Assembly (NCBI GenBank): GCA_031554275.1
Contig: JAVBKB010000130.1
Coordinates: forward strand, 1 to 22,480
DNA length: 22,480 nucleotides
Reading direction: 5' to 3'
Source of the DNA: Bacillales bacterium
Lineage (GTDB): Bacteria; Bacillota; Bacilli; JARBTR01
This document shows, piece by piece, positions 2,141-22,431 of this stretch. The translations under genes and the position numbers were made by a program. The stretch's first letter is position 1. Each line of letters starts with the position of its first letter. The notes under the pieces were generated by a model, which worked only from the letters and a program-made list of their open reading frames with translations, did not search any database and was not told where the DNA came from.

Positions 2141-2151
2141 GTGACTTCCTC

Positions 2152-5212: not shown

Positions 5213-5217
5213 AGCCC

Positions 5218-6369: not shown

Positions 6370-6373
6370 GAGA

Positions 6374-6823: not shown

Positions 6824-6855
6824 AAAACCAGTCCAGTTAGCTTATTTTTATAAGA

Positions 6856-6883
6856 ATTATAGCATTTTTCCGACCTTTCACAA
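6856..6883 (-). promoter_or_regulatory. Sigma-A-type promoter for the 6823←5218 operon on the minus strand: TTGTGA-16 nt-TGcTATAAT.
   Basis: Reverse complement of 6856-6883. The -35 is TTGTGA (6878-6883), the spacer is 16 nt, and the extended -10 is TGcTATAAT (6856-6864). It sits about 30 nt upstream of the ATG at 6823. Confidence 0.5.
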
Positions 6884-6920
6884 AAATATTTCAAGTAACC
6901 AATAAATAATGATTCCTTTA

Positions 6921-6949
6921 TTGTCAACTCTTTGATAATATTTATATAT
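6921..6949 (+). promoter_or_regulatory. Candidate sigma-A promoter for the LEA-like gene: TTGTCA-17-ATATAT/TATATA.
   Basis: TTGTCA lies at 6921-6926, and an AT-rich -10 hexamer 17-18 nt downstream. It is divergent from the aminotransferase operon promoter. Confidence 0.35.
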
Positions 6950-6974
6950 GAAATACTATTAGGGAGTGAAAAAA

Positions 6975-7322
6975 ATGTTTGAAAAGATTAAGAGCTTTTT
7001 CAAAAGCAAAACGCAGGATGCAAAAGAATTTGCTGCTAAAGCAGATGATATTCTTGAAGAAAAATTTGACGGCGTCAAAGAAAAGCTTGGCGATGCTAAG
7101 GATGTTGTTGCTGATAAGCTTGGCGATGCCAAAGATGTTATGGCAGACAAGTTTGGTGATGCAAAAGAATTTGCAGCTGACAAACTCGGCGATGCAAAAG
7201 ACGTTGTTGTAGATAAATTTGGCGATGCAAAAGAATTTGCAGCTGACAAAATAGGAGACCTTAAAGACAAAGTAACTGGTAAAGACAACGAAAATGATGC
7301 AACTGATAAAGAAAAACTGTAA
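6975..7322 (+). CDS. Small hydrophilic 11-mer-repeat protein, LEA group-3 / GsiB / CsbD-like, a putative general-stress or desiccation protein.
   Basis: The protein carries about six tandem copies of the 11-residue unit DK(L/F)GDAK(D/E)(V/F)(V/A)A. It is very rich in Lys, Asp and Ala, with no hydrophobic core. The ATG at 6975 has an AGGGAG RBS 9 nt upstream. Confidence 0.6.
   Translation: MFEKIKSFFKSKTQDAKEFAAKADDILEEKFDGVKEKLGDAKDVVADKLGDAKDVMADKFGDAKEFAADKLGDAKDVVVDKFGDAKEFAADKIGDLKDKVTGKDNENDATDKEKL
7083..7274 (+). repeat. Tandem 33-bp coding repeat, about 5.8 copies. It underlies the 11-residue protein repeat in the LEA-like gene.
   Basis: Consecutive units of aagcttggcgatgctaaggatgttgttgctgat, aagcttggcgatgccaaagatgttatggcagac, aagtttggtgatgcaaaagaatttgcagctgac and so on. 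Units 3 and 5 are identical. Confidence 0.85.
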
Positions 7323-7346
7323 TTAATGAAGGAGAGAACTACTTAA

Positions 7347-7991
7347 ATGGCAAATATTTTGGGTGACTTAATTGCTAAGCTTTTTAAATCAAAGATAGTA
7401 CAAGATCAGGTTGGCAACTTGGTACAAGATAAGATTGGAGATTTAGTTGGTGGACTTTTTGGTGGAGGCAGTACTGCTGCTACTACCTCTGGTAAGAAAC
7501 CAGCTAAGAAAAAATCCGAAGGTTTCAGTTTGACTGACCTCTTCACATCAGGTTTTATGAAGGAGAACACAAGCTTTCCTTCAATAGGAGATTTCTTAGG
7601 TGCTGGCAATCTTAAAGCTACTTCGCTTGATGAAATTTCCTCACTTCCACAAAACCAAATGCATGATTTGGCGGCAAATGGTACTAAGTTTGATGGTTGG
7701 AGAGAGATGCTTGGTGCAGCTGTTGCAGAAGCAATCACAGGAAAGAACAAAAACGTTGATCCATCTTCACTAGACTTAAGTAAGTTAATGAACGCGGATT
7801 TCATGAAGAGTAACACAAAGTTCGCTTCGCTTACTGATTTCATGCAAGCAGCGGGTGTAGATTCCGAAGATGCATTAAAAGCAAGTTCAAGTAAAAAAGT
7901 AGATGAACTTGTGTCTGAGGATGATTCTAATGGATTCGGGAACTGGAAAGACTTACTTGGATCAGCTGTAACATCATTCTTAAAAAAATAA
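7347..7991 (+). CDS. Hypothetical 214-aa soluble protein with an internal duplication; the family was not recognised.
   Basis: Two duplicated motifs are present: F(S/A)SLTD(L/F)..(S/A)G paired with F.KxNT.F, and FDGWREMLGAAVAEAI paired with FGNWKDLLGSAVTSFL. The gene is 24 nt downstream of the LEA-like gene and shares a bidirectional terminator. Confidence 0.5.
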   Translation: MANILGDLIAKLFKSKIVQDQVGNLVQDKIGDLVGGLFGGGSTAATTSGKKPAKKKSEGFSLTDLFTSGFMKENTSFPSIGDFLGAGNLKATSLDEISSLPQNQMHDLAANGTKFDGWREMLGAAVAEAITGKNKNVDPSSLDLSKLMNADFMKSNTKFASLTDFMQAAGVDSEDALKASSSKKVDELVSEDDSNGFGNWKDLLGSAVTSFLKK

Positions 7992-8004
7992 ACTGAGATT
8001 TCAG

Positions 8005-8044
8005 TAAAAAAATGCTAGGTTATGATGATAACCTAGCATTTTTG
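8005..8044. terminator. Bidirectional rho-independent terminator between convergent genes.
   Basis: AAAAAAA-ATGCTAGGTTAT-gatg-ATAACCTAGCAT-TTTTTG. This is a perfect 12-bp stem flanked by an A-run and a T-run. Confidence 0.8.
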
Positions 8045-8050
8045 TGTGTA

Positions 8051-9028
8051 TTACATTTTCTGTCCACAGCTCACACAGAATTTCGCTTCTATTGTATTTG
8101 CTGCACCACATGAAGCGCAGAAGTGGCCCTTCGGTTTGACTACTTGACCACATTCAGGGCAGAACTTCGAATCTGCAGGGATTTTGGCATCGCAACTTGG
8201 ACATTCAATTGATTTGTCAGTATCCCCATCAAAGAGCTTGTTTGCCATTTTCATGCCAGCAGCCATACCTAGCGCATCTGACATACTTGAGTTGCCTTTG
8301 CCCATTGCATCTGCTGCACTCAAGTTTTGATATTTGTCAACATCCTTTACCATGCTGAATGCTGCTGCTTTATTAATTTTTTCTTGAATTTCTTCTGGAT
8401 AATTGAAGCTTTGAATATTGAAGTCAAGGATTGAGATACCAATTTTCCGCATTTCGAAATCCAGGTCCGTTTTAATTCCTTCTGCTATATCGAATGCGCT
8501 GGCTTGGAGACGGAACATATCTTTTCCCTCTTGTAAGATCCATTTCATCAGATACTTATCCAATACTGCGACGATTCGACCGCGTAGTTCTTCAACAGTA
8601 TACATTTTCTTTACACCAGCAATTTTGTCAATTAGGGTGATGTAGTCAGAAACTTTGAAAATCAATGTGCCAAAAGCTCTAACAGGTAGTCCGCCTGGTA
8701 ATTCCTCAGAAGGAATGTTAATGGCGTTTTGTGTACCCCATTTCAACTCGATTTCTTTGTTATTTACAAAAAGTACTTCAGCTCGTAAACCGCTATTAAA
8801 TCCGAATCGAAAGCCCTTTAATGTGCTTAGAAAGGGGATGATATCTGATTGCAATTCATAAGTGCCTTCCTTTTCGAAAATACCTTCAACGCGACCATTA
8901 TACATAAATACAGCATCTTGTCCTGCTTTAAGGATAACGCGAGAGCCTTTCTCAAGCTCATCGTCATTCCATTTCCAGAAGATCACATCTTCCCGGAATT
9001 CTTGCCATTCCACAACATCTGCAAACAT
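8051..9028 (-). CDS. SPFH / Band_7_1-family protein with a C-terminal double zinc ribbon (B. subtilis YdjI-like).
   Basis: The N-terminal domain architecture matches the Band_7_1 (virion-core-like SPFH) family. The C terminus carries CPSCDAKIP...CPECG and CASCGAAN...CVSCG. It is the last gene of the pspA-led operon. The start was chosen at MFADVVEW (ATG at 9028) with a GAAAGGCGG RBS. Confidence 0.7.
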   Translation of the reverse strand: MFADVVEWQEFREDVIFWKWNDDELEKGSRVILKAGQDAVFMYNGRVEGIFEKEGTYELQSDIIPFLSTLKGFRFGFNSGLRAEVLFVNNKEIELKWGTQNAINIPSEELPGGLPVRAFGTLIFKVSDYITLIDKIAGVKKMYTVEELRGRIVAVLDKYLMKWILQEGKDMFRLQASAFDIAEGIKTDLDFEMRKIGISILDFNIQSFNYPEEIQEKINKAAAFSMVKDVDKYQNLSAADAMGKGNSSMSDALGMAAGMKMANKLFDGDTDKSIECPSCDAKIPADSKFCPECGQVVKPKGHFCASCGAANTIEAKFCVSCGQKM

Positions 9029-9097
9029 TTTTTTACCGCCTTTCAAATGATTTCACTAATTGTAACGTTTAAATACAATCGTATCGAAAACTTACTG

Positions 9098-10219
9098 CTA
9101 AAGACTATTCAAAAATTCTTGTCCTGCCTCAGTTCCAGTCAAGAAGTAAATTATGATAAATAATAGAACTAACCCAAGAACAGTTAAGATCGCAATCTTG
9201 ACTGGACTATATGGGTATCGGCCAGCAATTTCACCATTTTCACCATTGATTACATAGCTGTAAATTTTATTTTTGAACATAAAACCAGAACTCCATACTG
9301 GAAACAACACATGTTTAAACCGAACATTAGAATAGGTTGTATCTAGTGAAATCCCCTGTACAACGTCGTATTGAGCCAATACTTGACTTTCAACGTCTCT
9401 AACCAGGTAGTTGTACATCTCATGCTGAGCCATTTCAAATCCTGGTTGTGGCAGCATCGCATACTTTTCAGCATAGAAGCCCGACAAGTATGCAGATGAA
9501 AAGGGCACAAGGTGACCAGTATTAAATTCGTCGACTTGAGTTACTAGCGATGCATTCTTACCGCCACCATTTACAAGCACATCATCAAAAGACCGGGAAA
9601 CAGAACCACTTACATTGTACCAACGAACTCTTTGCTCTTGTCTTCTGTTACCTCTACCGTCACTGACTGTAACATAATAGACTTCTCCACCCATTGCAGC
9701 ATAACGGCTGTTTGTATCGGCATCATAAGTCCAATAAGGAAGGTAAATAGGCTTTAGCAGATCTTCTTGGTACATTTTTTTAAGAATATTAGGTGCTAGC
9801 CATCTCCGACCGATCCAATTTTTAAAAATTTCAGCCGAACGCTCTTTGGTAACCTTAAATGGGATAATTCCCTCAGGCCGAATGCCAGCATCCTGCTTCA
9901 CTTCCAAAATATTAGATGAGCCACAAAAAGCACAAGATGCTGTTGTATCATTCTTGGCAATTGATAATTCTGCACCACAAGAACTGCATTTGACAGTGTG
10001 AATCTGTTCTCCCCATTCAACATCTGCTTTTGAAAGTTCTATTTCTGTGAAATCATACTCTCTTATTGTGCTTTTCTGATTGGGCAGCTTCTCTAATACA
10101 TAGTTGCAATTTGGGCAGAGCATATGCTGTGACGCAATATCAAACTCGAGAATACTGTTACACTTTGGGCAATTATAAACGATTTGCTCTTTCGATACAG
10201 CCATTTCTTGAACAGCCAA
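9098..10219 (-). CDS. Zinc-ribbon membrane-anchored protein (YdjG/YdjH-like), encoded in the PspA operon.
   Basis: The N terminus has two CxxC...CxxC zinc ribbons (CPKCNSIL...CPNCNYVL and CSSCGAEL...CAFCGSSN). These are followed by a domain of about 250 aa and a C-terminal TM helix (IAILTVLGLVLLFIIIYFL). A TTG start is preceded by a GGAG RBS. Confidence 0.55.
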   Translation of the reverse strand: MAVQEMAVSKEQIVYNCPKCNSILEFDIASQHMLCPNCNYVLEKLPNQKSTIREYDFTEIELSKADVEWGEQIHTVKCSSCGAELSIAKNDTTASCAFCGSSNILEVKQDAGIRPEGIIPFKVTKERSAEIFKNWIGRRWLAPNILKKMYQEDLLKPIYLPYWTYDADTNSRYAAMGGEVYYVTVSDGRGNRRQEQRVRWYNVSGSVSRSFDDVLVNGGGKNASLVTQVDEFNTGHLVPFSSAYLSGFYAEKYAMLPQPGFEMAQHEMYNYLVRDVESQVLAQYDVVQGISLDTTYSNVRFKHVLFPVWSSGFMFKNKIYSYVINGENGEIAGRYPYSPVKIAILTVLGLVLLFIIIYFLTGTEAGQEFLNSL

Positions 10220-10302
10220 ATGAATTCACTCCATTGCTTTGTGAATGCTTTGATTCATTATTTTGATAGAATTTGATTCTGTTGTTTCTGTACTTTATCA
10301 CA

Positions 10303-10332
10303 AATCAGGCTGCGCCTTGCGCAGCCTGATTG
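10303..10332 (-). promoter_or_regulatory. Perfect 13-bp stem-loop between pspA and the downstream operon genes, possibly a partial terminator or attenuator.
   Basis: AATCAGGCTGCGC-cttg-GCGCAGCCTGATT. No strong U-tract follows on the minus strand. Its position is analogous to the readthrough terminator after liaH/pspA in other Firmicutes. Confidence 0.4.
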
Positions 10333-10346
10333 TTTGATTGAAAATA

Positions 10347-11045
10347 TTATTTCTTTGCTTTAGCTTTCATAGCAGCAAGCTCATCTTCAACTGATGGCGC
10401 AGATGGAATATCATCATATTTATCTTCTAGATCATCCAATTTCTCTTCATAAGAAAGCTCATTGTCTGTAACAGAATTCAACTCTGCCATAGCATTTGCT
10501 TTGTCTAGCATTTTGTTTGCTTTCTCTTCCATCTCACCGAATTTGTTCATGCTACCTTTTGATTGATCAATACTTGAGCCTAACTTGTTGATATGCTCTT
10601 GAGTTTTGGCGATATTCATTTTGGCTTTAATATTATCACGACGAGAATCTAGCTCACCGATTTGGTCTACTAATTTATCATGCATTGCACGCATTTTTGT
10701 TGAATTAGCAGTCGCTGAAACAAGTACTTGTTGCAAGCTTGCTTGTTGTCCAACCAAATGACTTTTCTTTGTAAGGAAGTCTCTCGCATCTGAATCATTA
10801 CCAGCTGCAACAGCACGTTCAGCATAGCTTTGTAGTTTGTTTACTTCAGCTTGATTCTCATCGAATTCACGCTGTGCACGCATTTGCTCTGCCATAATAG
10901 TTGCTGTTTCTGATTTGACTTCATTGAGGTCGTCTTGCATATCTCTTAATGCCTCATCAATCATTTTCTCTGGGTCTTCAGCCTTGTCTAGCAATGAGTT
11001 GATGTTAGCTTCCATGATGTCTTTAAATCTTGATAAAATACTCAA
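10347..11045 (-). CDS. pspA: Phage-shock protein A / IM30 family (PspA, LiaH/YdjF-like).
   Basis: The N terminus MSILSRFKDIMEANINSLLDKAEDPEKMIDEALRDMQ is the PspA signature. The remaining roughly 220 aa are coiled-coil. AGGAGGAAA provides the RBS. Confidence 0.9.
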   Translation of the reverse strand: MSILSRFKDIMEANINSLLDKAEDPEKMIDEALRDMQDDLNEVKSETATIMAEQMRAQREFDENQAEVNKLQSYAERAVAAGNDSDARDFLTKKSHLVGQQASLQQVLVSATANSTKMRAMHDKLVDQIGELDSRRDNIKAKMNIAKTQEHINKLGSSIDQSKGSMNKFGEMEEKANKMLDKANAMAELNSVTDNELSYEEKLDDLEDKYDDIPSAPSVEDELAAMKAKAKK

Positions 11046-11118
11046 TTGGGGTTTCCTCCTAAGTAGCAGAAATATCTACTACAATGATTTTTCAGCTAGA
11101 ATAACTAGCCACGCTATA

Positions 11119-11147
11119 ATTATATTAATTTTGGGGCAAAATTTCAA
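11119..11147 (-). promoter_or_regulatory. Near-consensus sigma-A promoter for pspA: TTGAAA-17-TATAAT.
   Basis: On the minus strand the -35 is TTGAAA (11142-11147), the spacer is 17 nt, and the -10 is TATAAT (11119-11124). The predicted 5'UTR is about 65 nt. Confidence 0.55.
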
Positions 11148-11394
11148 TGATTGTTTTTTAAATTTTCTAGTATAAGAGAATTTAATAATTATTATTTATT
11201 GGAATCTATTTGAAAAATAGTCACTTTTCTAATGCAACCATTGAGCAAATTTTACAAAAAAAATAAACGGACTTAAGCAGCTTACTTAAATAATGAAATT
11301 CCCTTGCAATCAACTAACATGAGGATGATAAAAAAACCTAATGCGCAACAAATTCCAGGAGGGTTTTGTTTTCTTCGCAAAAGGTCTTAAGGTG

Positions 11395-11679
11395 TTATCT
11401 TTGATAAATATTAATATTTTCTGTGACACCGTATGGCATTGGGTACCCGCTAATAGGATAACTTGGATACGGGGCGACAGGCGGATAGGGGGCAACAGGT
11501 GGATACGCTGGATATGGTTGAAATTGGGGGTATGGCATTGGGTAGGGATAGGGACGATTGAATAACAGACCCCCAATCGCGAGTCCACCGAGAAATGGTA
11601 GAAACGGGATGAATCTTTCGTCTTCTCTATAAATATTGCCATTGATTCCATTAGGGTTTTGAAAATAATCGGGATACAT
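11395..11679 (-). CDS. Small membrane protein of 94 aa with a Pro/Tyr-rich repeat tail (YP/PYP repeats); function unknown.
   Basis: A strong RBS is present (AAATGGAGG 7 nt before the ATG). One TM segment is predicted (FIPFLPFLGGLAIGGLLF). The C-terminal tail reads RPYPYPMPYPQFQPYPAYPPVAPYPPVAPYPSYP. The overlapping 131-aa ORF in another frame lacks an RBS. Confidence 0.55.
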   Translation of the reverse strand: MYPDYFQNPNGINGNIYREDERFIPFLPFLGGLAIGGLLFNRPYPYPMPYPQFQPYPAYPPVAPYPPVAPYPSYPISGYPMPYGVTENINIYQR

Positions 11680-11716
11680 TGTAGACCTCCATTTTGCTTT
11701 TTCAATAATGAGAAGG

Positions 11717-11746
11717 TTGCACTGAAGCCTTCATTATGGGTAAAAT
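11717..11746 (+). promoter_or_regulatory. Candidate sigma-A promoter for dapH: TTGCAC-18-TAAAAT.
   Basis: Based on hexamer match and spacing only. Confidence 0.3.
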
Positions 11747-11818
11747 GTCTTCAAGCTATATTATGGGATAACCACTCACTCTGAGCCTGTTCAAATCGAA
11801 TATTGGGGGAAAAGTCAA

Positions 11819-12529
11819 ATGAAGAAACTTACTGCAGAAGAAATTATATCGTTTATCGGTAATAGTAAAAAATCAACACCCGTTAAAGTCTATGTAAAAG
11901 GAGACCTCGATCAAATTGAGTTCGGAAATACCGTTCAAGCTTTTGTGGAGTCAAAGTCAGGCGTTCTTTTTGGAGAATGGGAAGCTATTGAAAAGTTTTT
12001 AGAAGAAAATAAAGCAAATATTTCGGACTATGTATTGGAATGTGATCGCCGCAATTCAGCTATTCCATTATTTGATAAGAAATATGCAAACGCTCGTATC
12101 GAGCCAGGTGCAATCATTCGTGACCAAGTGGAAATTGGGGATCAGGCTATTATCATGATGGGTGCTGTAATCAATATAGGTGCGACAGTTGGTGCGAAGA
12201 CGATGATTGATATGAATGCGGTTCTTGGTGGACGTGCAGAAGTTGGTGCCAATTGCCATATTGGTGCAGGAGCAGTGTTGGCAGGAGTCGTTGAACCGCC
12301 ATCTGCAAAACCAGTAATCGTTGAAGACGGTGTTTTGGTAGGGGCAAATGCAGTTGTATTGGAAGGTGTCCGTGTTGGAGCTGGTTCAGTTGTAGCTGCT
12401 GGTGCCATTGTTGTTCAAGATGTAGCGCCAAATACTGTGGTTGCAGGCGTACCAGCAAGGATGATCAAAACAATTGATCAAGTAGACAAATCGAAAATTG
12501 AAATGAAAGATGAATTACGTAACTTGTAA
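11819..12529 (+). CDS. dapH: 2,3,4,5-tetrahydropyridine-2,6-dicarboxylate N-acetyltransferase.
   Basis: The N terminus [22 protein letters not shown] is characteristic of DapH (YkuQ). A left-handed beta-helix hexapeptide-repeat region follows. The 236-aa length is as expected. Confidence 0.9.
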
Positions 12530-12679
12530 CAGGCAGTTAATTTCTTAGCATCATAATAAGGGGTTTCCACAGGAATTGCTGTTTCTAGCGAAGAAAATTA
12601 CTGTTGTTAGAAATTATGTTTACCTAAATACTTCAATGTGTCATACTATTATTATCTTATTGAGAAAGGAACACAGAAA

Positions 12680-13192
12680 ATGAATAAAATGATGAAAAAG
12701 GTTTTACTTGGATCAATCATGGCTATTTTAGTCCTAGGATTAGTAGGTTGTGGTGGAGGAGATCAAACAATTACAAGTAAGGATAAGAAATTCGAGGTTA
12801 AAGTTCCAAAAGAATGGGAACTAGTTGAAGACGGAGTAGGCGAAGACGGACTAGTTGTCGCTGATGCACAATCAGAAAGTGATGCTACTCAAATGGTTGT
12901 AATTATGCCAATCGGTGAACCGGACATGTTTGAAGGTGACCTTGAAGATTCATTTGATGAAATTTTTGGATCAGAAAGTGGTACAGATACGAAAAAACTT
13001 TCTACAGACAAAATTTCTGGCTTTGAGGCGATTACAGTTGAAATAAAATCTGATGACGAAGGTACATATATTGCAGCTCTTATCAAAGGCGAAAAGAAAG
13101 TATATATGGTGAATACTGGAGCAAAAGAGAGTAAAGACTACGATCAAAAGAAATTTGAGAAGATTGCAAAAAGTGTTAAGATCAAAGAGTAA
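12680..13192 (+). CDS. Lipoprotein of unknown function.
   Basis: The signal peptide MNKMMKKVLLGSIMAILVLGLVGC carries an LVGC lipobox. The mature part is acidic. The start was chosen at the ATG with a GAAAGGAA RBS rather than the longer track ORF. Confidence 0.65.
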   Translation: MNKMMKKVLLGSIMAILVLGLVGCGGGDQTITSKDKKFEVKVPKEWELVEDGVGEDGLVVADAQSESDATQMVVIMPIGEPDMFEGDLEDSFDEIFGSESGTDTKKLSTDKISGFEAITVEIKSDDEGTYIAALIKGEKKVYMVNTGAKESKDYDQKKFEKIAKSVKIKE

Positions 13193-13208
13193 TGATAATC
13201 TAATTATG

Positions 13209-13245
13209 ACATCTCCAATGTAGACTACATTGGAGATGTTTTTTC
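13209..13245 (+). terminator. Rho-independent terminator after the lipoprotein gene.
   Basis: ACATCTCCAATGTAG / CTACATTGGAGATGT forms a palindromic stem followed by TTTTTT. Confidence 0.75.
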
Positions 13246-13278
13246 GTGGTGACAACTTGTGCTAAGAAACAGTTTCGA

Positions 13279-13617
13279 CTAGTTCTTTGCAGACATATTT
13301 ACACCCAATATGCCGCCCATCATTGCCGTTAGGACATAACTTGCGTAGTAAATAATTTGTTTTATTGAGAACAAAGTATCTAAACCCAAATACTGATACA
13401 GGAAAATGATTAACGTGTACAACAAGCCAGTCGCACCGCCAAGCATCCAACCGGATTTTTTCCCTCTTCCACCAGAAACAAAACCGCCTATGAATAGGGA
13501 AATGAATGAGACAAATAAGATTATGTAACCAATGGTGGTCTCACTTGTATCTGTGAAACGCAGAATCAGTGAGAAGATCAAACTTGATGTAGCTGCAAGC
13601 ACAAAGATCACTAACAA
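13279..13617 (-). CDS. Small polytopic membrane protein downstream of the spoVB-like gene (YrzE/YrbG-like position). The start codon is uncertain.
   Basis: Three to four TM helices are predicted. The only canonical start is the TTG at 13617, which has no RBS. A strong RBS (GAAAGAGGGGA) lies 60 nt upstream, positioned before an in-frame ATC codon (13656-13654). Confidence 0.5.
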   Translation of the reverse strand: MLVIFVLAATSSLIFSLILRFTDTSETTIGYIILFVSFISLFIGGFVSGGRGKKSGWMLGGATGLLYTLIIFLYQYLGLDTLFSIKQIIYYASYVLTAMMGGILGVNMSAKN

Positions 13618-13797
13618 ACCATAAAGAATTGCTGTACTAATTTTTTTCGTTTCGATGGTAAATCCCCTCTTTCATCTAACTGGACACGCTAATCCAACTA
13701 TATGTACAACAGATTAGAAAAAGACCAGGTTGTATAGAATTTTCCAAGCTGTTGAACTTTTTCCACACAGCAAAATTCACAATTTCACACCAAAATC

Positions 13798-15360
13798 TCA
13801 TCCAATAAAACTCCTTGAAATCAATTTACCAAAGAGCGGAATGCGCTGCACTTCAGGCTTCGTGACAACACCAGTAATCACCAACAATATGAGAAACAGT
13901 ACAACCATGAGGGATGCAGTCAGAAGCACATTCTGTACCATTCCAAGTGCTGCGAATATCTTCAAGTTAAGCAGATGTCCTGTGAACCCTGTAATCAAAA
14001 TAATCACACCTGTAACAACATATTCTCGCAGATAAATTGGCACATGGATTTTGCGGGAAATTGAAACGAAATGTAGCCAAGTAATCAGGATTATTCCAAC
14101 CCCAAGCGAGAGCGTAACCCCCATGATACCAAAGCGAGGTTGCGTTGCCAGAATCAGTATTAATACTGTTTTCACAGCTGCTCCAATGAAGCTATTCACC
14201 ATTGCAGCAGTTGCCATATTCATTGCTTGCAGTGCTGCTTGAAGCGGTCCTTGGTAAAAGAAAAACAGGAAGAAAGGCGCCAGAAATTTAACATAATGGG
14301 CAGCATGATTATTGCCATACATCAAGGTCATTAATGGGTCTGCTAACACATAGATGATGACAACGGAAAGAGCACCACTGATAAAGGTGAAGCGTAACGA
14401 TTGATGTAGCTGGTACTCCACTAGCCTGAATTTCTTTTTCGCATAGGCTTCACTAATAGCAGGAATGAGTGAAGTACCCAATGAAGTTGTGATAAATGAT
14501 GGAAGCATGAGGAGTGGCAAGGCATATCCCGTTAACTCTCCATATAGCTTTGTAGAACTAACAGTTGTGATGCCTGCGATCGCTAAACTCTGTGCGACAA
14601 CAATCGGCTCAAGGAACCAAGCTATTGAGCCAATCATCCGACTGCCAGTAGTAGGGATGGCAATTGTCATCAGCTCTTGTAGTGTTTTACGTCCCTTGAC
14701 CATATGAGAGAAAAATTGTTTGCGTAAGCGAAAATTTTTTCGAAGTTTAAAACGTGCCAGTAGATACAATAATGAAACTAGCTCTCCTATTATAGAAGCC
14801 ACAATGGCACCAGCAGTGGCATACTCAATGCCATAAGGTAAAAACTTCTTCGTGAGGTAAGCGATTAAAGCAATTCGAACAGATTGCTCTAATATCATTG
14901 AAAATGCAAATGGGTTCATCTGCTGTTTCCCTTGGAAGTAGCCCCGTAACACGGCAGAAACTGCTGTGATCGGAATAATTGGTGCCATAGCAAGGAGTGG
15001 GTAATAAACGCGGTGATCTGTGAACAATGTTTGAGAAATGAACTTTGCACCTAATATTAATAAAGGTGTGAAAATCATTGAAAGAAGAATGGTTACTGCC
15101 AGTGAAACAACAAGTATTGATTTCACTTTCCTTGAATCATCTCTCGCCGTAGCTTCCGCAACAAATTTGGAGATGGCAACAGGTAGTCCAATTTGTGTGA
15201 TCGCAATCACTAGAAATAGGGTTGGTGAGGCCATCATGTATAAACCAACGCCCTCTTCACCAACAAACCGTGCTAACACGATCCGATTAATGAATCCAAG
15301 AATTCTAGTGATGAATCCTGCAATGAGTAAAATGATTGTTCCTTTAAGAAATCTTGACAT
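13798..15360 (-). CDS. spoVB: MOP-superfamily flippase, SpoVB/MurJ-like (stage V sporulation protein B, or a polysaccharide/lipid II flippase homologue).
   Basis: The 520-aa product has about 14 TM segments. The N terminus LKGTIILLIAGFITRILGFINRIVLARFVGEEGVGLYMMASPT is very close to B. subtilis SpoVB as recalled from memory (unchecked; a MurJ/YtgP-type paralogue cannot be excluded). The gene is divergent from comN-secDF, as in the B. subtilis locus. Confidence 0.6.
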   Translation of the reverse strand: MSRFLKGTIILLIAGFITRILGFINRIVLARFVGEEGVGLYMMASPTLFLVIAITQIGLPVAISKFVAEATARDDSRKVKSILVVSLAVTILLSMIFTPLLILGAKFISQTLFTDHRVYYPLLAMAPIIPITAVSAVLRGYFQGKQQMNPFAFSMILEQSVRIALIAYLTKKFLPYGIEYATAGAIVASIIGELVSLLYLLARFKLRKNFRLRKQFFSHMVKGRKTLQELMTIAIPTTGSRMIGSIAWFLEPIVVAQSLAIAGITTVSSTKLYGELTGYALPLLMLPSFITTSLGTSLIPAISEAYAKKKFRLVEYQLHQSLRFTFISGALSVVIIYVLADPLMTLMYGNNHAAHYVKFLAPFFLFFFYQGPLQAALQAMNMATAAMVNSFIGAAVKTVLILILATQPRFGIMGVTLSLGVGIILITWLHFVSISRKIHVPIYLREYVVTGVIILITGFTGHLLNLKIFAALGMVQNVLLTASLMVVLFLILLVITGVVTKPEVQRIPLFGKLISRSFIG

Positions 15361-15541
15361 ATTAAATTACCAACCTTTTCAATCTATCAACAATCCAGTA
15401 CAATAGAAATGATACTTGATTGTTTGACTCTTTTTTCTTAAGCGAGTTATTTGTCTACATAACTAAAGGTAGCTTTATAAAAGATATGCACTCAACAGAC
15501 AAGCTTATGATTTTTCAGTAACTATTATTTCTTTAGTTTTT

Positions 15542-15570
15542 TTTGCGAAAAAAAAATTGAGAATGTAGAA
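15542..15570 (+). promoter_or_regulatory. Candidate sigma-A promoter for comN-secDF: TTGCGA-17-TAGAAT.
   Basis: The -35 is at 15542-15547 and the -10 at 15565-15570, about 20 nt upstream of the comN ATG. Confidence 0.4.
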
Positions 15571-15590
15571 TGTGAAGGGTAGGAGTACTT

Positions 15591-15884
15591 ATGCATCCAA
15601 ATGAATTGTATCGAAAGCAGGTACAACCCGCTTTACAGCTGAAGTGTAAGGATTTCGAGTTAATGGGTTACAATGTTAATGAAGAAGGAATTTGGAGTTA
15701 TTTTGTGGATTATAAATGGCGTAAGCAGACCAATGTTTTGCGTCTATATCAAGTTGTAAATGAGATACTAATGCTGAAGATTTCTGACTATATGAACTTT
15801 GCCTCACTAGATGTGATCAAACGTTCGGGCCCAAAGAGGAAAGGGATGCAGTTAAATAAAGAAGACTTGAAAGATTTGATCTAG
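15591..15884 (+). CDS. comN: Post-transcriptional regulator ComN (YrzD)-like small protein.
   Basis: The 97-aa ORF has an AGGAG RBS and lies immediately upstream of secDF, which is exactly the position of comN/yrzD in Bacillus. Confidence 0.5.
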   Translation: MHPNELYRKQVQPALQLKCKDFELMGYNVNEEGIWSYFVDYKWRKQTNVLRLYQVVNEILMLKISDYMNFASLDVIKRSGPKRKGMQLNKEDLKDLI

Positions 15885-15954
15885 TTTTTTACTAGGGATA
15901 AGTATTATAATGTATTTTATTGAAGATGGAAGTTTTGAGAGGAGCCATAAGTAA

Positions 15955-18213
15955 ATGATTAAAAGAAGTAGAATAATTGCATTTGTTCTGATTGTGGGTT
16001 GTCTAGGCGGAATATTTGCATGGACAGTTGAACCAATAATGAAGAACGTAAGTTTAGGTTTAGATCTTCAAGGAGGATTTGAAGTTCAGTATCAAGTTGA
16101 CCCTGCTAAAGAGGGGCAAACAATTAATGAAGAAGCACTAAAGGCAACTGCAAGCGCACTTAACCGACGAGTTGACGTTCTTGGAGTCAACGATCCAAGC
16201 ATCAATATTGAAGGCGAAACAATACGTGTCCAGCTTGCAGGCGTGAAGGATGCAGATAAAGCAAGAAAAATACTGTCAACAGAGGCTAATCTGACGTTAC
16301 GTGATTATCAAGACAAGGTAATGCTTGATGGTGCTGACTTTGTGGAGAACGGCGCTTATGCTGGTTATAATGACCGCAATCAGATCTGTGTTTTCATCAA
16401 GTTAAAGGACGCTAGCAAATTCTATAATGTAACGAATGAAGTATATGGTAAGCCGGACAAGGCATTGGTCATTTGGTTGGATTTTGAAGAAGGTGTCGAT
16501 TCATATGCCACTGAGAAGGTCAAAGCCAAACCTAAGTTTATCTCCGCACCAGGTGTAAATGATGGTCCAATTAATAGTGAAACAGCAACAATTTCGGGAA
16601 GTTTCACCATTCAAGAAGCACAAGAACTTTCTGAAATCCTTAATGCTGGGGCACTACCAACAAAGTTAACTGAGATCTATTCGACATCAGTGGGAGCACA
16701 GTTTGGTAAGAATGCGTTAGATCAAACAATGCTAGCAGGCATAATTGCTTTGGCACTTGTATTTGCATTTATGATTTATTTCTACCGATTCCCTGGTTTT
16801 CTGGCATGTATTACATTAACAATATATTGTTATGTCATGATTTTTGTTTTTGAAAAGATCAATGGTGTGCTAACCCTACCAGGTATTGCCGCCTTGATTC
16901 TTGGAGTGGGTATTGCTGTTGATGCCAATATCATTGCTGATGAACGGATTAAGGACGAGCTTAGAAAAGGTCGAACGGTTAAAGCAGCATTCAAAGAAGG
17001 TAATAAACACTCGATCGCTACAATCATTGATGCTCACGTAACAACACTTATTGTCTCGATTGTTCTCTTTATCTATGGTACAAGTTCTGTTAAAGGATTC
17101 GCAACAATGCTGTTTATCAGTATCATTGTTGGTTTCTGTACTGCAGTATATGGTACAAGAGGATTAATGAAGCTTTGGGTAGATAGCAATTTCTTAAACA
17201 ATCGTTTAGGCTGGCTCCATGTGAAGAAAAGCCAAGTCCTCAAACTCAAAGATGTCAATAATGACTTAGATATCCCGACACGTTTTGATAAATACGATTT
17301 TATCAAGCATAGTAAAAAATTCTTTATTGTTTCACTAGTACTCACAGTTGTCGGAATCGGCTCCCTTTTCATCTCAGGTCTTAATACGAGTATTGACTTC
17401 TCAAGTGGATCGCGGATTGAAGTTGTTTCTGATAAATCCGTTTCTGTAGATGTAGTTAAAGAAAAGTTTGATGAATTGGGGATTAAGGTTGATGATGCGA
17501 TCACGGCAGACGCAGGCGCAGGCAATGAATCCGTTATTGTGCGAGTCAAAGGAGAGCTCTCCCAAGACCAAGTACTTCAAGTGAAGTCAACGATGAGTTC
17601 GACGTTTGGGCATGAACCAAATATTAGTACAGTTTCATCCATCATTGGAAAAGAGCTTGCAAAGAATGCTTTGATATCAGTACTAATTGCTTCCATTGGG
17701 ATCATTATCTATATAACAATTCGATTTGAGTGGAGAATGGCAATCGCAGCAATTGTTTCACTTCTGCATGATGCATTCTTTATCGTCACGGTTTTCAGCT
17801 TGATCAGGTTTGAAGTTGACTTAACGTTTATTGCAGCCGTTCTGACGATACTTGGTTATTCAATCAATGATACAATTGTTACCTTTGACCGTATTCGTGA
17901 GAATATGAAAAAAGCAAAGAAAATCCGATCCAAAGAAGAGGTTGCTCGGATTGCGAATATCAGTATTCGTCAAACCTTGAGACGATCTATTAATACTGTT
18001 GTGACCGTTATCTTAACAGTACTGGCGATGCTCATATTTGGAAGTCATGCGATCTTCAACTTTAACTTCGCATTACTTGTGGGCTTGATGATTGGTATGT
18101 ATTCTTCGGTTCTGATTGCAGTGCCGATTTGGGTTTTCTTGAAAGGAAAACAGGTTTCCAAAACAGGTGGCATCAAGACTGAACCGAAAAAGAGTATCGA
18201 AGGAACTGTGTAA
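15955..18213 (+). CDS. secDF: Protein translocase subunit SecDF (fused SecD/SecF).
   Basis: The 752-aa product has the N-terminal TM and periplasmic P1 domain (LDLQGGFEVQYQV) and two 6-TM bundles. The fused SecDF form is typical of Bacillales. Confidence 0.95.
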   Translation: MIKRSRIIAFVLIVGCLGGIFAWTVEPIMKNVSLGLDLQGGFEVQYQVDPAKEGQTINEEALKATASALNRRVDVLGVNDPSINIEGETIRVQLAGVKDADKARKILSTEANLTLRDYQDKVMLDGADFVENGAYAGYNDRNQICVFIKLKDASKFYNVTNEVYGKPDKALVIWLDFEEGVDSYATEKVKAKPKFISAPGVNDGPINSETATISGSFTIQEAQELSEILNAGALPTKLTEIYSTSVGAQFGKNALDQTMLAGIIALALVFAFMIYFYRFPGFLACITLTIYCYVMIFVFEKINGVLTLPGIAALILGVGIAVDANIIADERIKDELRKGRTVKAAFKEGNKHSIATIIDAHVTTLIVSIVLFIYGTSSVKGFATMLFISIIVGFCTAVYGTRGLMKLWVDSNFLNNRLGWLHVKKSQVLKLKDVNNDLDIPTRFDKYDFIKHSKKFFIVSLVLTVVGIGSLFISGLNTSIDFSSGSRIEVVSDKSVSVDVVKEKFDELGIKVDDAITADAGAGNESVIVRVKGELSQDQVLQVKSTMSSTFGHEPNISTVSSIIGKELAKNALISVLIASIGIIIYITIRFEWRMAIAAIVSLLHDAFFIVTVFSLIRFEVDLTFIAAVLTILGYSINDTIVTFDRIRENMKKAKKIRSKEEVARIANISIRQTLRRSINTVVTVILTVLAMLIFGSHAIFNFNFALLVGLMIGMYSSVLIAVPIWVFLKGKQVSKTGGIKTEPKKSIEGTV

Positions 18214-18252
18214 AAACTTCTAACAAAACACAATTTTAAAATTAATAATTGA

Positions 18253-18290
18253 GGATAGCTACTGTGCAAACAGCAACTATCCTTTCTTAT
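18253..18290 (+). terminator. Terminator after secDF.
   Basis: GGATAGCTACTG-tgcaaa-CAGCAACTATCC forms a stem of 10 bp out of 12, followed by TTTCTTAT. Confidence 0.5.
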
Positions 18291-18332
18291 AAGAAAAAAC
18301 TTTTTGAAAAAATTTCTTAATTGGGGTGCCGT

Positions 18333-20198
18333 ATGAAAAAACCAAGTCTTAAAGAGAGATTGAGTTATCAGTTTGACAAAGTAATGACGAAAGGAACAGT
18401 TGCACTTGTTGGGCTGTTATTTCTGATTACAATTATTGTGATATTAATTGGTGGGTGGATAGCTTCGTGGTTTGTGGATGAAGATGTTTCGATTTGGAAA
18501 TCGCTTTGGTTAAGCTTCAACCATACAATTGATTCTGGGATGCTTGGAGGAGATGAAGGTGGCATATCTTTACTTCTGATCATGTTCATCATAACAATTT
18601 GTGGTATTTTCATTACTAGTATGTTAATCGGGGTGTTGAGTTCTGGTCTAGAATCGAAGTTTACTTCCTTGAGAAAGGGAAAGTCCAGAGTGCTTGAGAA
18701 TGGTCACGTGGTGATCCTTGGATTCAATGATAATGTTTTCCCGATTATTTCTGAACTGTTGATTGCCAATGAGAGTGAGAAGAAGCAGAGCATTGTCGTA
18801 TTTGGTAACGAAGATAAAGAAGTAATGGATGAAGCGATGAGTGCTTATTTTCCTGATACAAAGAATACAACGATTATTTGTAGAAGCGGTGAGACAACTA
18901 GTATTTCGGATTTGTCAGCCTGCTCAATCGAAAGTTGCCGATCAGTTATTGTCAATGAATCAGATGATTTCTCTGTTATCAAAACCATTATTGCTACAGC
19001 CAGTATTATTAAAGATTCGGAGAATTGTAGTGCGTATATGGTTGCGACTGTTCAAAATAAGCGAAATGTCGAGGCAGCAAAAATCGCTGGTGAAGGATTT
19101 GCATATATTCTGTATTTCAAAAGCACAATTGCTCGAATTATTGCACATACTTGCAATCAACCTGGATTGTCTGCTGTTTTTACGGATTTATTCGACTTTG
19201 CAGGGGATGAAATCTACTTTGAAGAATTCCCGCAATTCTATGGAAAAACCTATCAAGAAATTATCTGTTCGTTTGGATCGTCTTCTGTTATTGGTATCGG
19301 AAAAAACAAAGCTACACTTCTTAATCCGAATAATGAAACAGTCTATGATCAGGGTGATCAACTAATCTTGATTGCAGCTGATAATAATGAGTCATCAGCG
19401 CTAGCAAATGCGCCAGCAATCGATGTTAACGCGATCTTGTCAAATACACATCGTACAAATATTACGCCGAAAGAAAATGTTCTTTTCCTTGGCTACAACG
19501 ATTTGTTACTAGAAATAATCGCAGAGCTAGATCATTATGTTGCAGATGGATCGAAGATTTGTATAGCTACGACAGAAGCTTTGCCAGACGAAACAAAGAA
19601 ATTACTAGAAAGCAAATGTAAGAAAATTGATCTTATTCTCAAAGAATGCGACTTATTTACACAAAGTGAGTTGGAAGCACTTGTGAAAGATGCAGTCAGT
19701 ATTGTTTTATTAAGCAATTATGATCAAGACCCTGAGGTATCCGATTCAGAGACATTACTGCTCTTATTACATCTAAGAGATATTTCACTTAAGAAAGGCT
19801 ACAGCTTCTCAATAACAAGTGAGATGATTAAAGTTCGCAACCAGAAACTAGCTAAGGTAGCTCGTGTTAATGATTTTGTTATAAGTAGTAATATTACTGG
19901 CTTGATGGTGGCTCAGCTTTCTCAAAACCAACTGCTATTCAATGTTTTTGAAGATTTGTTAGATAATGATGGTTCAGAAATCTATATGAAACCTGTTGGT
20001 GATTATGTAGATCTAAGCAAGCCTGTTAATTTATTTACAGCTTATCAGGCCGTTGCAAATCGAAATGAAACAATGATCGGTTATAAGCGAATGTCAGGAA
20101 CCAATCAAAGTTATCAAATTACCTTGAACCCAGATAAGCAGGAAGAGATTAAATTTACAGAACAAGATTCATTCATAGTTCTTTCAGAAGAAGGCTGA
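18333..20198 (+). CDS. Two-TM membrane protein with a pore-loop-like segment and two tandem Rossmann-like RCK/TrkA-N domains that lack GxGxxG. This is a CASTOR/POLLUX (DMI1)-related putative ion channel.
   Basis: TM1 (ALVGLLFLITIIVILIGGWIA) is followed by SLWLSFNHTIDSGMLGGDEGG (compare the DMI1 filter ADSGNHA) and then TM2. Two repeats of the V(I/L)(I/F)LG(F/Y)ND..(F/L)..I..EL motif each begin a domain of about 220 aa. Confidence 0.5.
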   Translation: MKKPSLKERLSYQFDKVMTKGTVALVGLLFLITIIVILIGGWIASWFVDEDVSIWKSLWLSFNHTIDSGMLGGDEGGISLLLIMFIITICGIFITSMLIGVLSSGLESKFTSLRKGKSRVLENGHVVILGFNDNVFPIISELLIANESEKKQSIVVFGNEDKEVMDEAMSAYFPDTKNTTIICRSGETTSISDLSACSIESCRSVIVNESDDFSVIKTIIATASIIKDSENCSAYMVATVQNKRNVEAAKIAGEGFAYILYFKSTIARIIAHTCNQPGLSAVFTDLFDFAGDEIYFEEFPQFYGKTYQEIICSFGSSSVIGIGKNKATLLNPNNETVYDQGDQLILIAADNNESSALANAPAIDVNAILSNTHRTNITPKENVLFLGYNDLLLEIIAELDHYVADGSKICIATTEALPDETKKLLESKCKKIDLILKECDLFTQSELEALVKDAVSIVLLSNYDQDPEVSDSETLLLLLHLRDISLKKGYSFSITSEMIKVRNQKLAKVARVNDFVISSNITGLMVAQLSQNQLLFNVFEDLLDNDGSEIYMKPVGDYVDLSKPVNLFTAYQAVANRNETMIGYKRMSGTNQSYQITLNPDKQEEIKFTEQDSFIVLSEEG

Positions 20199-20435
20199 AC
20201 GATACGATTGGATATAAGTCGGGAGAAGCGACAGAAAAGCTGAGATTTGGACAATTTAGCGCAGACGAAATAGTTGCAACATATTGTTCAGATACAATAA
20301 CTGCGACATAAATCCTGTTTGCTTTGAACATCAAAAGGATGTGGAATCCATTTTGGAACAAATTCCGCATTCTTTTTGATTTATCCTATTTATTTCGTAA
20401 TTCGACGAAAAGATTGGTCGATTTCGGAAATATCC

Positions 20436-20757
20436 GCTTTATCCTAATTGTCGATAGAAATGCAACTTATCCTGATTACCGATTAAGATAGCGAATGCTT
20501 TGTGGTAATTTTCCATCTCGCTTTGTTAAAAAAGTGCATAAATATCTAGATATTCGCGCATTTTTTGCCGCGCGAGATGAAAAAATTCCGGACAAATCAT
20601 TCACTATTTTAATCGGTAATCAGGATTAAAACTCGCTAAGATCCCAAATACTTCGTCATAATTTCCTAGGATAGTCCCGCTATCCGTCGTAAATTATTCC
20701 TCGTCTTTGAAAATCTTATCGGAGTTTTAAGTTGTATTTTAACGACAATTAGGATTA
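20436..20757. repeat. Structured intergenic repeat element, copy A (MITE-like). It carries 29-bp terminal inverted boxes (20441-20469 and 20727-20755), a nested 31-bp inverted repeat (20467-20498 and 20598-20628), a 14-bp perfect palindrome and a GC-stem.
   Basis: ATCCTAATTGTCGATAGAAATGCAACTTA (20441-20469) is the reverse complement of TAAGTTGTATTTTAACGACAATTAGGAT (20728-20755), allowing for 2-3 mismatches. The inner arms TTATCCTGATTACCGATTAAGATAGCGAATGC and CATTCACTATTTTAATCGGTAATCAGGATTA pair at 28 of 31 positions. AATATCTAGATATT lies at 20541-20554. Confidence 0.65.
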
Positions 20758-20829
20758 TTTTGATTATTTTCTTTACTTTTAGGCAATTTTTATTAATAAT
20801 AGATACAATCTTTTGAACCGAGGAATCCT

Positions 20830-22431
20830 ATGTATACACAGAAGTTTTATCGACCAAATCAGGTTTTCGAAGACGCCGCAAAGTATGTGAATGACGAATC
20901 TGGAATGGCTTTGATCAAAAAGGCATTTGAATTTGCAGATCGATTGCACAAGGGGCAGTTTCGTAAATCAAGAGAACCATATATTGTGCATCCTACTCAG
21001 GTGGCAGGGATCCTTGTTGAGCTTGAGATGGATCCAGCAACAATTGCTGCTGGGTTTCTTCATGATGTTGTAGAGGACACTGACGCTACACTTGAAGAGA
21101 TTGGTCGTGAATTCAACGAGACGATTATGCATTTGGTTGATGGTGTTACAAAGTTAGGAAAGATCAAATATAAGTCCCAAGAACAAGAACAGGCAGAGAA
21201 TTATCGCAAGATGTTTGTGGCAATGACGAATGATTTCAGGGTCATTATCATTAAATTCGCTGACCGGCTACATAATTTAAGAACACTGAAGCATTTACCT
21301 CCTGAGAAACAAATGAGAATTGCTAATGAGACGCTTGAAATCTTCGCGCCACTTGCAAACCGACTTGGTATTTCCAATATTCAATGGGAATTAGAGGATA
21401 CCGCACTCCGTTTTCTAGACCCATCTCATTATTTCAAGGTAGTCAACTTAATGAAACAGCGAAGCCATGAGCGGGAAAAATATCTCAATATGGTTATGGA
21501 AGAGATCCGCAAAAGCATGGCAGAATCTGATATTGAGGGTGAAGTGTTTGGGCGACCAAAGCATATCTACAGTGTTTATCGGAAGATGGAGATAAAGGGC
21601 AGGCAGTTTGACGAGATTTACGATCTGATTGCAGTTCGTGTTGTCGTTGATAGCATTAAGGATTGCTATGCAGTATTAGGTGCAGTGCACACATTATGGA
21701 CACCAATTAATGGTCGGCTAAAGGACTTTATCGCAATGCCGAAATCAAATATGTATCAGTCTTTGCACACAACCGTGATTGGACCAGAACGCGTGCCATT
21801 TGAAATCCAAATCCGGACTAAAGATATGCACCGTGTTGCACAATACGGTATCGCAGCACATTGGGCGTATAAGCAAGATAAGGATATTAAAAAGAAGAAG
21901 GATGCTGAGAAGAAGCTTGATTTCTTCCGAGAGTTTGTAGAAGTGCAAGAGCAGGATCAGAATGATGATGTTACTTTCTTGCAATCCCTTAAGAATGATT
22001 TGTTCACAGATATGGTCTATATCTATACGCCAAAGGGTGATGTATTTGAGTTGCCGCAGGGGTCAGTGCCAATTGATTTTGCTTATCGGGTTCACTCAGA
22101 GATTGGCAATAAAACGATAGGTGCAAAGATCAATGGAAAGATTGTTCCATTAGATACAGAGCTAAGTACAGGGGATATAATTGAAATTCTTACTGCAAAG
22201 AATTCTTCAGGTCCAAGCCGTGACTGGCTGAAAATGGCGAAGTCAGTACACACACGAAACAAAATTAAGCAGTTCTTTAAGAAGCAAAACCGAGAAGAGA
22301 ATGTTATTAAGGGACGTGATATGCTTGAAAAAGAACTTCGTGATATGGAGATCGAATTCAAGGAAGCATTCGCCTCTGATAATCTAAAACGTATTCTAGA
22401 TAAATATAATTTTCTACACGAAGATGACTGA
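20830..22431 (+). CDS. relA: Bifunctional (p)ppGpp synthetase/hydrolase Rel/RelA. The reading frame is terminated by an in-frame TGA at 22429-22431 (codon 534), after the TGS domain. The protein as encoded lacks the C-terminal ZFD/RIS and ACT/RRM domains.
   Basis: The HD hydrolase motifs (HPTQVAGIL...FLHDVVEDT), the synthetase motifs (RPKHIYSVYRKM...DLIAVRVV...IQIRTKDMHRVAQYGIAAHWAYK) and the TGS domain (VYIYTPKGDVFELPQGSVPIDFAYRVHSEIGN) are all present. Homologues continue for about 200 more residues. The same frame after the TGA encodes YAAIGYSGLNARQVAT. Confidence 0.85.
   Translation: MYTQKFYRPNQVFEDAAKYVNDESGMALIKKAFEFADRLHKGQFRKSREPYIVHPTQVAGILVELEMDPATIAAGFLHDVVEDTDATLEEIGREFNETIMHLVDGVTKLGKIKYKSQEQEQAENYRKMFVAMTNDFRVIIIKFADRLHNLRTLKHLPPEKQMRIANETLEIFAPLANRLGISNIQWELEDTALRFLDPSHYFKVVNLMKQRSHEREKYLNMVMEEIRKSMAESDIEGEVFGRPKHIYSVYRKMEIKGRQFDEIYDLIAVRVVVDSIKDCYAVLGAVHTLWTPINGRLKDFIAMPKSNMYQSLHTTVIGPERVPFEIQIRTKDMHRVAQYGIAAHWAYKQDKDIKKKKDAEKKLDFFREFVEVQEQDQNDDVTFLQSLKNDLFTDMVYIYTPKGDVFELPQGSVPIDFAYRVHSEIGNKTIGAKINGKIVPLDTELSTGDIIEILTAKNSSGPSRDWLKMAKSVHTRNKIKQFFKKQNREENVIKGRDMLEKELRDMEIEFKEAFASDNLKRILDKYNFLHEDD

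Follow-up and report, generated by a model that had tools for sequence, protein, structure and literature searches.

Two related putative miniature inverted-repeat transposable elements, one nested in the other, upstream of rel in an uncultured Bacillales-like Firmicute

The DNA analyzed here is a 22,480-nucleotide stretch (the window) from an uncultured Bacillales-like Firmicute whose nearest Rel proteins are 78%, 72%, and 71% identical to its own. The structured interval immediately upstream of its rel gene most likely consists of two related non-autonomous DNA transposons of the kind known as MITEs (for miniature inverted-repeat transposable elements), one nested in the other. We refer to the outer element as O, to the inner element as H, and to the composite at rel (O::H; 20439 to 20757) as locus B; related modules occupy a second site, locus A (4964 to 5213). 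The noncoding gap ahead of rel runs from 20199 to 20829 and measures 631 nucleotides, in line with the 630 bp given in a preliminary description of this DNA. All of the features listed in that description are present with offsets of a few bases, and the segment of about 320 bp that it singled out is real and structured, but it starts at 20439 (or at 20442) rather than at 20436 and holds two elements, not one.

The 29-bp inverted boxes that had been reported at the borders of the segment lie at 20441 to 20469 and 20728 to 20755 and agree at 26 of 29 positions with one indel. The left arm of O (20442 to 20469, forward strand), which runs through the TTA targeted by H, belongs to a box (20439 to 20469) whose reverse complement is found in locus A (5183 to 5213; 30 of 31 positions), and in the rest of O (20629 to 20754) the left arm continues (AAACTCGCTAAGAT...) and is followed by a GGATAG/CTATCC hairpin at the center and by the right arm (20712 to 20754). 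H, a 156-bp full-length imperfect palindrome with the termini TCCTGATTACC...GGTAATCAGGA, occupies 20470 to 20625 between TTA at 20467 to 20469 and TTA at 20626 to 20628. When 20470 to 20628 (H and one TTA) was cut out in silico, the left box paired past its 29 nucleotides to approximately 43 nucleotides (ATCCTAATTGTCGATAGAAATGCAACTTAAAACT-CGCTAAGAT versus ATCCTAATTGTCGTTA-AAATACAACTTAAAACTCCGATAAGAT), giving the terminal inverted repeats of O, and the pairing continued into the central hairpin. The reconstituted 160-nucleotide O folded into a full-length hairpin (−35.2 kcal/mol; z = −9.7; 0 of 200 shuffles as low). Additionally, the rejoined left arm was identical at 36 of 37 positions to the reverse complement of an uninterrupted arm in locus A (5177 to 5213; …GAGTTTTAAGTTGCATTTCTAACGACAATTAGGATAA), and this match spanned the insertion point (CAAC-TTA-AAACTC), including the 6 nucleotides AAACTC beyond it. 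The single TTA of the uninterrupted arm is present on both sides of H; the uninterrupted arms used for this check read CAACTTAAAAC. Because excision restores both the O hairpin and the sequence of the uninterrupted arm, H was inserted with a 3-bp TTA duplication. Thus, H is nested in the left arm of O, and its target duplication was checked against a paralogous empty site. O itself, approximately 154 bp long (20442 to 20754 minus the insert), is likewise flanked by TTA on both sides (20439 to 20441 and 20755 to 20757), while TAA borders the whole of locus A on both sides (4965 to 4967 and 5211 to 5213).

The inner inverted repeat of 31 bp that had been described within the segment exists but is longer than stated: the arms of H pair over 35 nucleotides with 91% identity (20469 to 20503 versus 20592 to 20626) and extend to the center, so that 20469 to 20626 form one 158-nucleotide imperfect palindrome. 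Its center of symmetry is the perfect 14-bp palindrome AATATCTAGATATT (20541 to 20554), which had been noted before together with an adjoining 6-bp GC stem (TCGCGC at 20554 to 20559 and GCGCGA at 20570 to 20575). Folded as single-stranded DNA, the palindrome reached −41.8 kcal/mol (z = −8.6), and 0 of 200 shuffles were as low, so the strong secondary structure expected of the interval was borne out for H as well as for rejoined O. The mismatches in the H stem were strand symmetric, with four that are G-U compatible on each strand and six others, as would be expected of a DNA palindrome that decays by mutation and not of an RNA structure under selection on one strand.

O and H share a 17-nucleotide terminus, TTATCCTRATTRYCGAT, with 14 of 17 positions identical between TTATCCTAATTGTCGAT and TTATCCTGATTACCGAT. 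The recurring short motif of the preliminary description, TTATCCT(A/G)A, for which at least seven occurrences had been counted, corresponds to this terminus: with up to one mismatch, TTATCCTRATT occurred 10 times in the window versus 1.8 expected, and eight of the 10 occurrences were in loci A and B, where they are the element termini. A match at 14083 to 14093 falls inside spoVB and was dismissed as chance. At 20380 to 20391, 58 nucleotides upstream of the left end of O, the sequence TTTATCCTATTT resembles the element terminus at 11 of 12 positions and may be a solo terminus that has decayed or a coincidence. The elements are small, noncoding, AT-rich, and intergenic (O, approximately 154 bp; H, 156 bp; and an H variant in locus A, 89 bp), with open reading frames of only 25 to 59 amino acids and no Pfam match; by our reading of the sequence, none of the six frames of the O arm is free of stop codons.

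One of these spurious frames, a 44-amino-acid open reading frame in H on the forward strand (P0242; 20495 to 20629; no Pfam match), served as a handle for finding further copies of H. The second member of its 90% cluster, P0243, lies on an 11,779-nucleotide NCBI contig, and a homology search of 5.8 billion clusters added a single further counterpart, P0244, on a 22,187-nucleotide NCBI contig. The two counterparts were identical to P0242 at 42 and 41 of 44 positions (93 to 95%). Both read through the right terminus of H (…ILIGNQD, corresponding to …GGTAATCAGGAT) and into D-Y-S-P-C-F… and D-K-F-P-Q-N…, respectively, and these downstream flanks resemble neither each other nor the window. Reading the codons back past the terminus ...GGTAATCAGGA gives CAGGA|TTA|Y for P0243 and CAGGA|TAA|R for P0244, that is, TWA directly after the terminus in both cases. 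Near-identical frames that run into different flanks on three contigs indicate that H is, at the level of sequence, a dispersed repeat. It has at least three copies, almost identical and each at a different site, in addition to the variant in locus A, so that confinement to the two loci of the window, named in the preliminary description as grounds for refutation, does not hold for H. The "hypothetical proteins" P0241 to P0244 (44 to 84 amino acids) are accordingly annotation artifacts, being translations of the H repeat with its flanks or of locus A.

Locus A combines the same two modules in another arrangement. An 89-bp H-type hairpin, H′ (4968 to 5056), has termini of roughly 30 nucleotides that are 78 to 85% identical to those of H and an unrelated interior; a spacer of approximately 109 nucleotides (5057 to 5165) that is not clearly related to locus B follows; and a solo right arm of O on the forward strand (5166 to 5210, then TAA at 5211 to 5213), which is not interrupted by H, closes the locus. 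No left arm of O was found there. The solo arm matched the right arm at rel with 91% identity over 46 nucleotides (5166 to 5211 versus 20712 to 20755; E value of 2e-13), the left end of locus A matched 20465 to 20495 with 84% identity (4962 to 4993), and the 31-nucleotide box was not recovered once in 100 shuffles of the window. The global alignment score of the two loci was 176, versus 108.5 ± 7.2 for shuffled sequences; only the ends align, and the interiors are not clearly related. The "related copy" reported at 4966 to 5212 therefore holds for its ends, but it is an H-type hairpin plus a solo O arm and not a copy of the composite. A 59-amino-acid open reading frame across this locus (P0241; 5006 to 5185) was a singleton in the protein collection, and a HMMER search with it of 1.84 billion representatives gave only two unrelated repeat proteins near an E value of 5e-4. 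The solo arm ends 4 nucleotides from the stop codon of an aminotransferase gene, and a terminator-like hairpin with a T-run (4952 to 4931, reverse strand), on the same transcribed strand as that gene, lies just past the locus.

Searches with nucleotide patterns and alignments added no further copies. The box pattern GTTGNATTTN{3,4}CGACAATTAGGAT had no match in the genome, metagenome, and viral contig collections, and the pattern of the H terminus had none in the viral collection and one in the metagenome collection (L047), an unrelated, eukaryote-looking sequence that was rejected. Searches with blastn of the element and of a 48-nucleotide arm against plasmids and phages gave nothing or chance matches of 18 to 33 nucleotides. 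A search for related loci with Rel in genome contigs returned distant Sphingomonas loci only. In the loci of relatives (L039 to L049; approximately 190 kb, with much overlap between loci), no O or H termini were found; a 14-of-17 match in L039 lies in a coding region without a partner arm and was set aside as chance. Intergenic blastn comparison with the relatives showed nothing significant except the rel promoter, and string searches of the literature with the terminal sequences found primer coincidences only.

Several of these results count against a mobile origin. The two further copies of H were read from translations of open reading frames and only on the right flank, and their contigs may or may not belong to the same genome. 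Beyond this metagenome-assembled genome, the genome, metagenome, viral, plasmid, and phage collections yielded no match through which the elements could be followed. Only one complete O and one solo arm were seen (approximately 1.5 copies), and O offers no open reading frame usable as a handle. The flanks of H′ are imperfect (TAA at 4965 to 4967 and TAC at 5057 to 5059), and the interior of locus A is unique. No autonomous insertion sequence with matching ends was found, the window being without a transposase gene, and O and H may be inactive relics. As for empty sites, there is a paralogous one for H; the relatives also lack the elements at rel, but they share only 70 to 78% identity in Rel and the locus is rearranged, so that they provide no clean orthologous empty site.

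The position of the composite directly upstream of rel, together with its very stable predicted structure, raises the alternative of a structured small RNA or a cis-regulatory leader that controls rel, an option that had been left standing beside the MITE option in the preliminary description. The absence of a terminator-like site between the upstream channel gene and rel, which makes read-through transcription possible, also speaks for it. However, a search of the element against Rfam gave no hit at gathering thresholds (the best subthreshold model, MIR4208, scored 37 bits versus 140), and in E value mode its only matches, all subthreshold, were to precursor hairpins of plant microRNAs, models against which a long hairpin of any kind gives a score. 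Modules of the composite are also present on other contigs and downstream of an unrelated gene, the mismatches in the stem are not biased toward either strand, and no promoter-like or canonical terminator-like site was present within 20439 to 20757. The promoter of rel also lies downstream of the element and is conserved in relatives that have no element at rel. Its probable −35 and −10 boxes are TTTACT (20772 to 20777) and AATAAT (20795 to 20800) on the forward strand, separated by 17 nucleotides and conserved in four relatives. We therefore consider an RNA function highly improbable, while the MITE option is favored by the terminal inverted repeats, the 3-bp duplication, and the dispersal of H.

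The same comparison shows what the relatives have where the window has the composite. In the four relatives, apt is followed by a terminator with a T-run, approximately 25 nucleotides, the conserved promoter (CTTTAC(T/A)…17 nt…AATAAT), and rel. This promoter is shared with relatives that are 70 to 78% identical in Rel, and in the window it is approximately 30 nucleotides upstream of the start codon. Two of the relatives, L043 and L045, have an extra leader of approximately 35 nucleotides at rel. The right end of O is 15 nucleotides upstream of the −35 box, and similarity to the relatives seems to begin within approximately 15 nucleotides of that end. Since the terminator of apt in the relatives has the position of O::H in the window, the composite occupies the place of this terminator. 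The interval from the channel gene to rel yielded no canonical terminator, and a T-rich tract, TTATTTTGATTATTTTCTTT, comes after the hairpin of O. In an RNA reading through from the channel gene, the long hairpins would be expected to form a very stable structure followed by this tract, and on such a model the hairpins of O and H may insulate rel or terminate read-through transcription.

Both loci coincide with breakpoints of gene order. The order recJ-apt-relA-dtd on one strand was found in three independent relatives (L039, L043/L044, and L045), and two relatives showed the longer order aminotransferase (reverse strand)…dapH…DUF3792, spoVB, comN, secDF. L049 and L043 are on one contig, where the secDF order of L049 runs into recJ and L043 has recJ-apt-relA. 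In the window, recJ and apt (1628 to 4548, reverse strand) are inverted and displaced by approximately 15 kb from this conserved place directly upstream of rel, a relocation specific to this lineage. The block from the aminotransferase to secDF keeps its orientation relative to rel, and recJ-apt lies inverted at the far end of the block. The window also has a channel gene after secDF; in L043/L049, recJ follows secDF with no gene intervening, and the channel gene is a lineage-specific addition at the secDF junction. As read from gene order, the minimal path would comprise two inversions, the second of which would invert exactly 5214 to 20438. This 15.2-kb block (aminotransferase...dapH...spoVB, comN, secDF, channel) has as its borders, exact to the base, the inverted O arms at 5183 to 5213 and 20439 to 20469, whose outer termini face the block, and undoing its inversion makes secDF-channel-recJ-apt co-linear. 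MITEs are known hotspots of recombination (PMC10969869). Recombination between the inverted O arms is thus a plausible source of the 5214-to-20438 step, one that we stop just short of favoring. The other inversion is without explanation, as the third junction (1307 to 1627) contained no O or H element or remnant.

Three other treatments of the rearrangement were set aside. Misassembly was rejected as unlikely because the inverted arms share at most 15 consecutive identical nucleotides, which is below any assembler k-mer. Movement of recJ-apt as a composite transposon was rejected for want of an element at the junction at 1307 to 1627, and GC skew was uninformative as an inversion clock, since it tracks gene orientation. 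In the junction itself, the motifs GGTGGA(C/T)TTCC and TTTCCG are repeated, and there is a strong hairpin, CCCACCCAG…CTGGGTGGG (approximately 1411 to 1438). The terminator after apt comes approximately 200 nucleotides later there than in the relatives.

The coincidence of arms and breakpoints can also be turned around: the boxes may be inverted duplications left by the inversion of the 15.2-kb block, through staggered breaks with fill-in or as recombination products, and never have been mobile. Near-identical inverted arms (30 of 31) exactly at both ends of the block, and the location of both loci at synteny breakpoints relative to four relatives, are what such a scar would leave. It would not account for H on two other contigs with unrelated flanks, nor for a 17-nucleotide terminus common to two different elements. 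Moreover, removal of H leaves O as a whole palindromic unit between TTA flanks of its own, and the arm at 5166 to 5213 has no H and hence is not a copy of the present left arm at locus B. We regard a scar as very unlikely. Repeated inverted boxes of 17 to 31 nucleotides around a 15-kb block would likewise suit the crossover sites of a site-specific recombinase or invertase, or a repressor operator array, but the window has no recombinase, invertase, or regulator gene, and the boxes terminate whole palindromic units, which have target duplications and one of which lies inside another. This possibility is scarcely credible.

A mobile origin could, in principle, be of another type. O and H both fold over almost their full length into hairpins at very low energies, and the elements are clustered and in inverted orientation, as would be expected of REP/REPIN-like or IS200/IS605-type palindromic elements (PATE), in which single-stranded hairpins are moved by a Y1 (HUH) transposase. 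REP/REPIN and Y1-mobilized IS200/IS605-type elements make no target duplication and have no terminal inverted repeats in the DDE sense. The ends of IS200/IS605-derived elements are asymmetric and carry subterminal hairpins, and their insertion takes place 3' of a fixed tetra- or pentanucleotide. Here, by contrast, a 3-bp duplication was verified against an empty paralogous site, the termini are symmetric repeats with TCCTRATT in place of a GTAG-type REP head, and neither a RAYT nor a TnpA gene lies within the window, which makes this origin most unlikely. Because the duplication is verified and Y1-mobilized elements make none, a DDE-type transposase is favored for the two MITEs. Encoded elsewhere in the genome, such an enzyme would recognize the shared terminus and move O and H in trans; it would make 3-nucleotide staggered cuts at TWA targets, and cut-and-paste insertion would leave the 3-bp duplication. 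As the termini are so similar, O and H were probably served by the same or sister enzymes. Carrying no genes, the elements are probably neutral passengers. A more ambitious account, in which O and H form a currently or recently active TWA-targeting system that prefers the arms of its relatives, the arms drove the recJ-apt inversion, and O::H replaced the apt terminator and sets read-through into rel, seems to us doubtful as a whole.

The genes of the window were assigned by Pfam. From the left end, these encode a DUF11 protein (25 to 750, forward), a DksA/TraR-type zinc-finger protein (791 to 1306, reverse), apt (1628 to 2140, reverse), recJ (2152 to 4548, reverse), a class I/II aminotransferase (5218 to 6459, reverse), ykyB (6374 to 6823, reverse), a LEA-like protein (6966 to 7322, forward), an SPFH protein (8051 to 9046, reverse), pspA (10347 to 11045, reverse), dapH (11819 to 12529, forward), a DUF3792 protein (13279 to 13617, reverse), a spoVB-like flippase (13798 to 15360, reverse), a comN-like regulator (15591 to 15884, forward), secDF (15955 to 18213, forward), a Castor/Pollux-RCK channel of 625 amino acids with an RCK domain (18321 to 20198, forward), and rel (20830 to the contig end, forward). 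By these assignments, the window is without a transposase, RAYT, TnpA, recombinase, invertase, or regulator gene. The LEA-like frame at 6966 to 7322 contains six tandem 33-nucleotide (11-amino-acid) repeats at 7046 to 7276, and its similarity to LEA_4 is subthreshold (46.9 bits versus a cutoff of 51.1). In rel, an in-frame TGA at 22429 to 22431 stands where the relatives conserve Leu (EDD[L]YAA). It differs from TTA by a single base, and the frame runs on (YAAIGYSGLNARQVAT) for 49 nucleotides to the contig end. This TGA is either genuine, a nonsense mutation with loss of the C-terminal regulatory domains, or an error at the end of the contig.

Overall, the MITE interpretation explains a structured gap that would otherwise be open to annotation as a riboswitch or small RNA upstream of a key regulator. 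It provides an internally controlled case of a MITE nested in a MITE, with the 3-bp TWA duplication verified, and a plausible example of a 15-kb rearranged block, bracketed by MITE arms, in the breakup of the widely conserved recJ-apt-relA order. The elements add a new repeat family and a marker for genome rearrangement in an uncultured lineage, and not a new class of system; O and H are a previously unrecorded family of an ordinary bacterial kind of repeat.

Among known systems, the REP/REPIN and IS200/IS605-derived repeats are, like O and H, hairpin forming, clustered, and intergenic, and O and H differ from them by their duplication. In the pneumococcus, small repeats of different kinds form clusters in which one is inserted within another (PMC10969869). 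The BOX, RUP, and SPRITE repeats of these clusters, which also belong to a Firmicute, resemble the present case in that H lies inside O and in that an H-type element and an O arm occur together at both loci, whereas their sequences and termini differ from those of O and H. RUP is linked to IS630-Spn1 and has TA targets, in contrast to the TWA target and 3-bp duplication of O and H.

With respect to the enzyme, the target of Harbinger elements is TWA, and IS5-family ends usually begin with G, in contrast to the TCCT of O and H. Harbinger elements of the canonical type leave 3-bp duplications and have phylogenetic ties to groups of IS5 that include ISL2 and IS1031 (PMC12730594). The 3-bp duplication is thus common to O and H, the Tourist-type MITEs of PIF/Harbinger, and the IS5 family, which are candidates by this feature alone, and by analogy it points to an IS5-type enzyme as the mobilizer. 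IS30-type enzymes make 2- to 3-bp duplications and tend to target their own inverted repeats; such an enzyme would fit the landing of H in an O arm and, on the same kind of analogy, is an equally open candidate.

Prokaryotic MITEs are defined as noncoding, AT-rich, intergenic, multicopy sequences of less than 500 bp with terminal inverted repeats, direct-repeat flanks, and stem-loops, and copies of the "type II" class share their ends only, with partial and solo-arm copies being common (PMC10969869). O and H fit this definition and the "type II" class; known examples of prokaryotic MITEs are Correia of Neisseria, Chunjie of Geobacter, and the QMITEs of Coxiella (PMC10969869). They have no sequence similarity to any collection searched, and their arms, at approximately 43 to 70 nucleotides versus the 4 to 30 bp of typical terminal repeats, make their palindromy unusually complete for MITEs.

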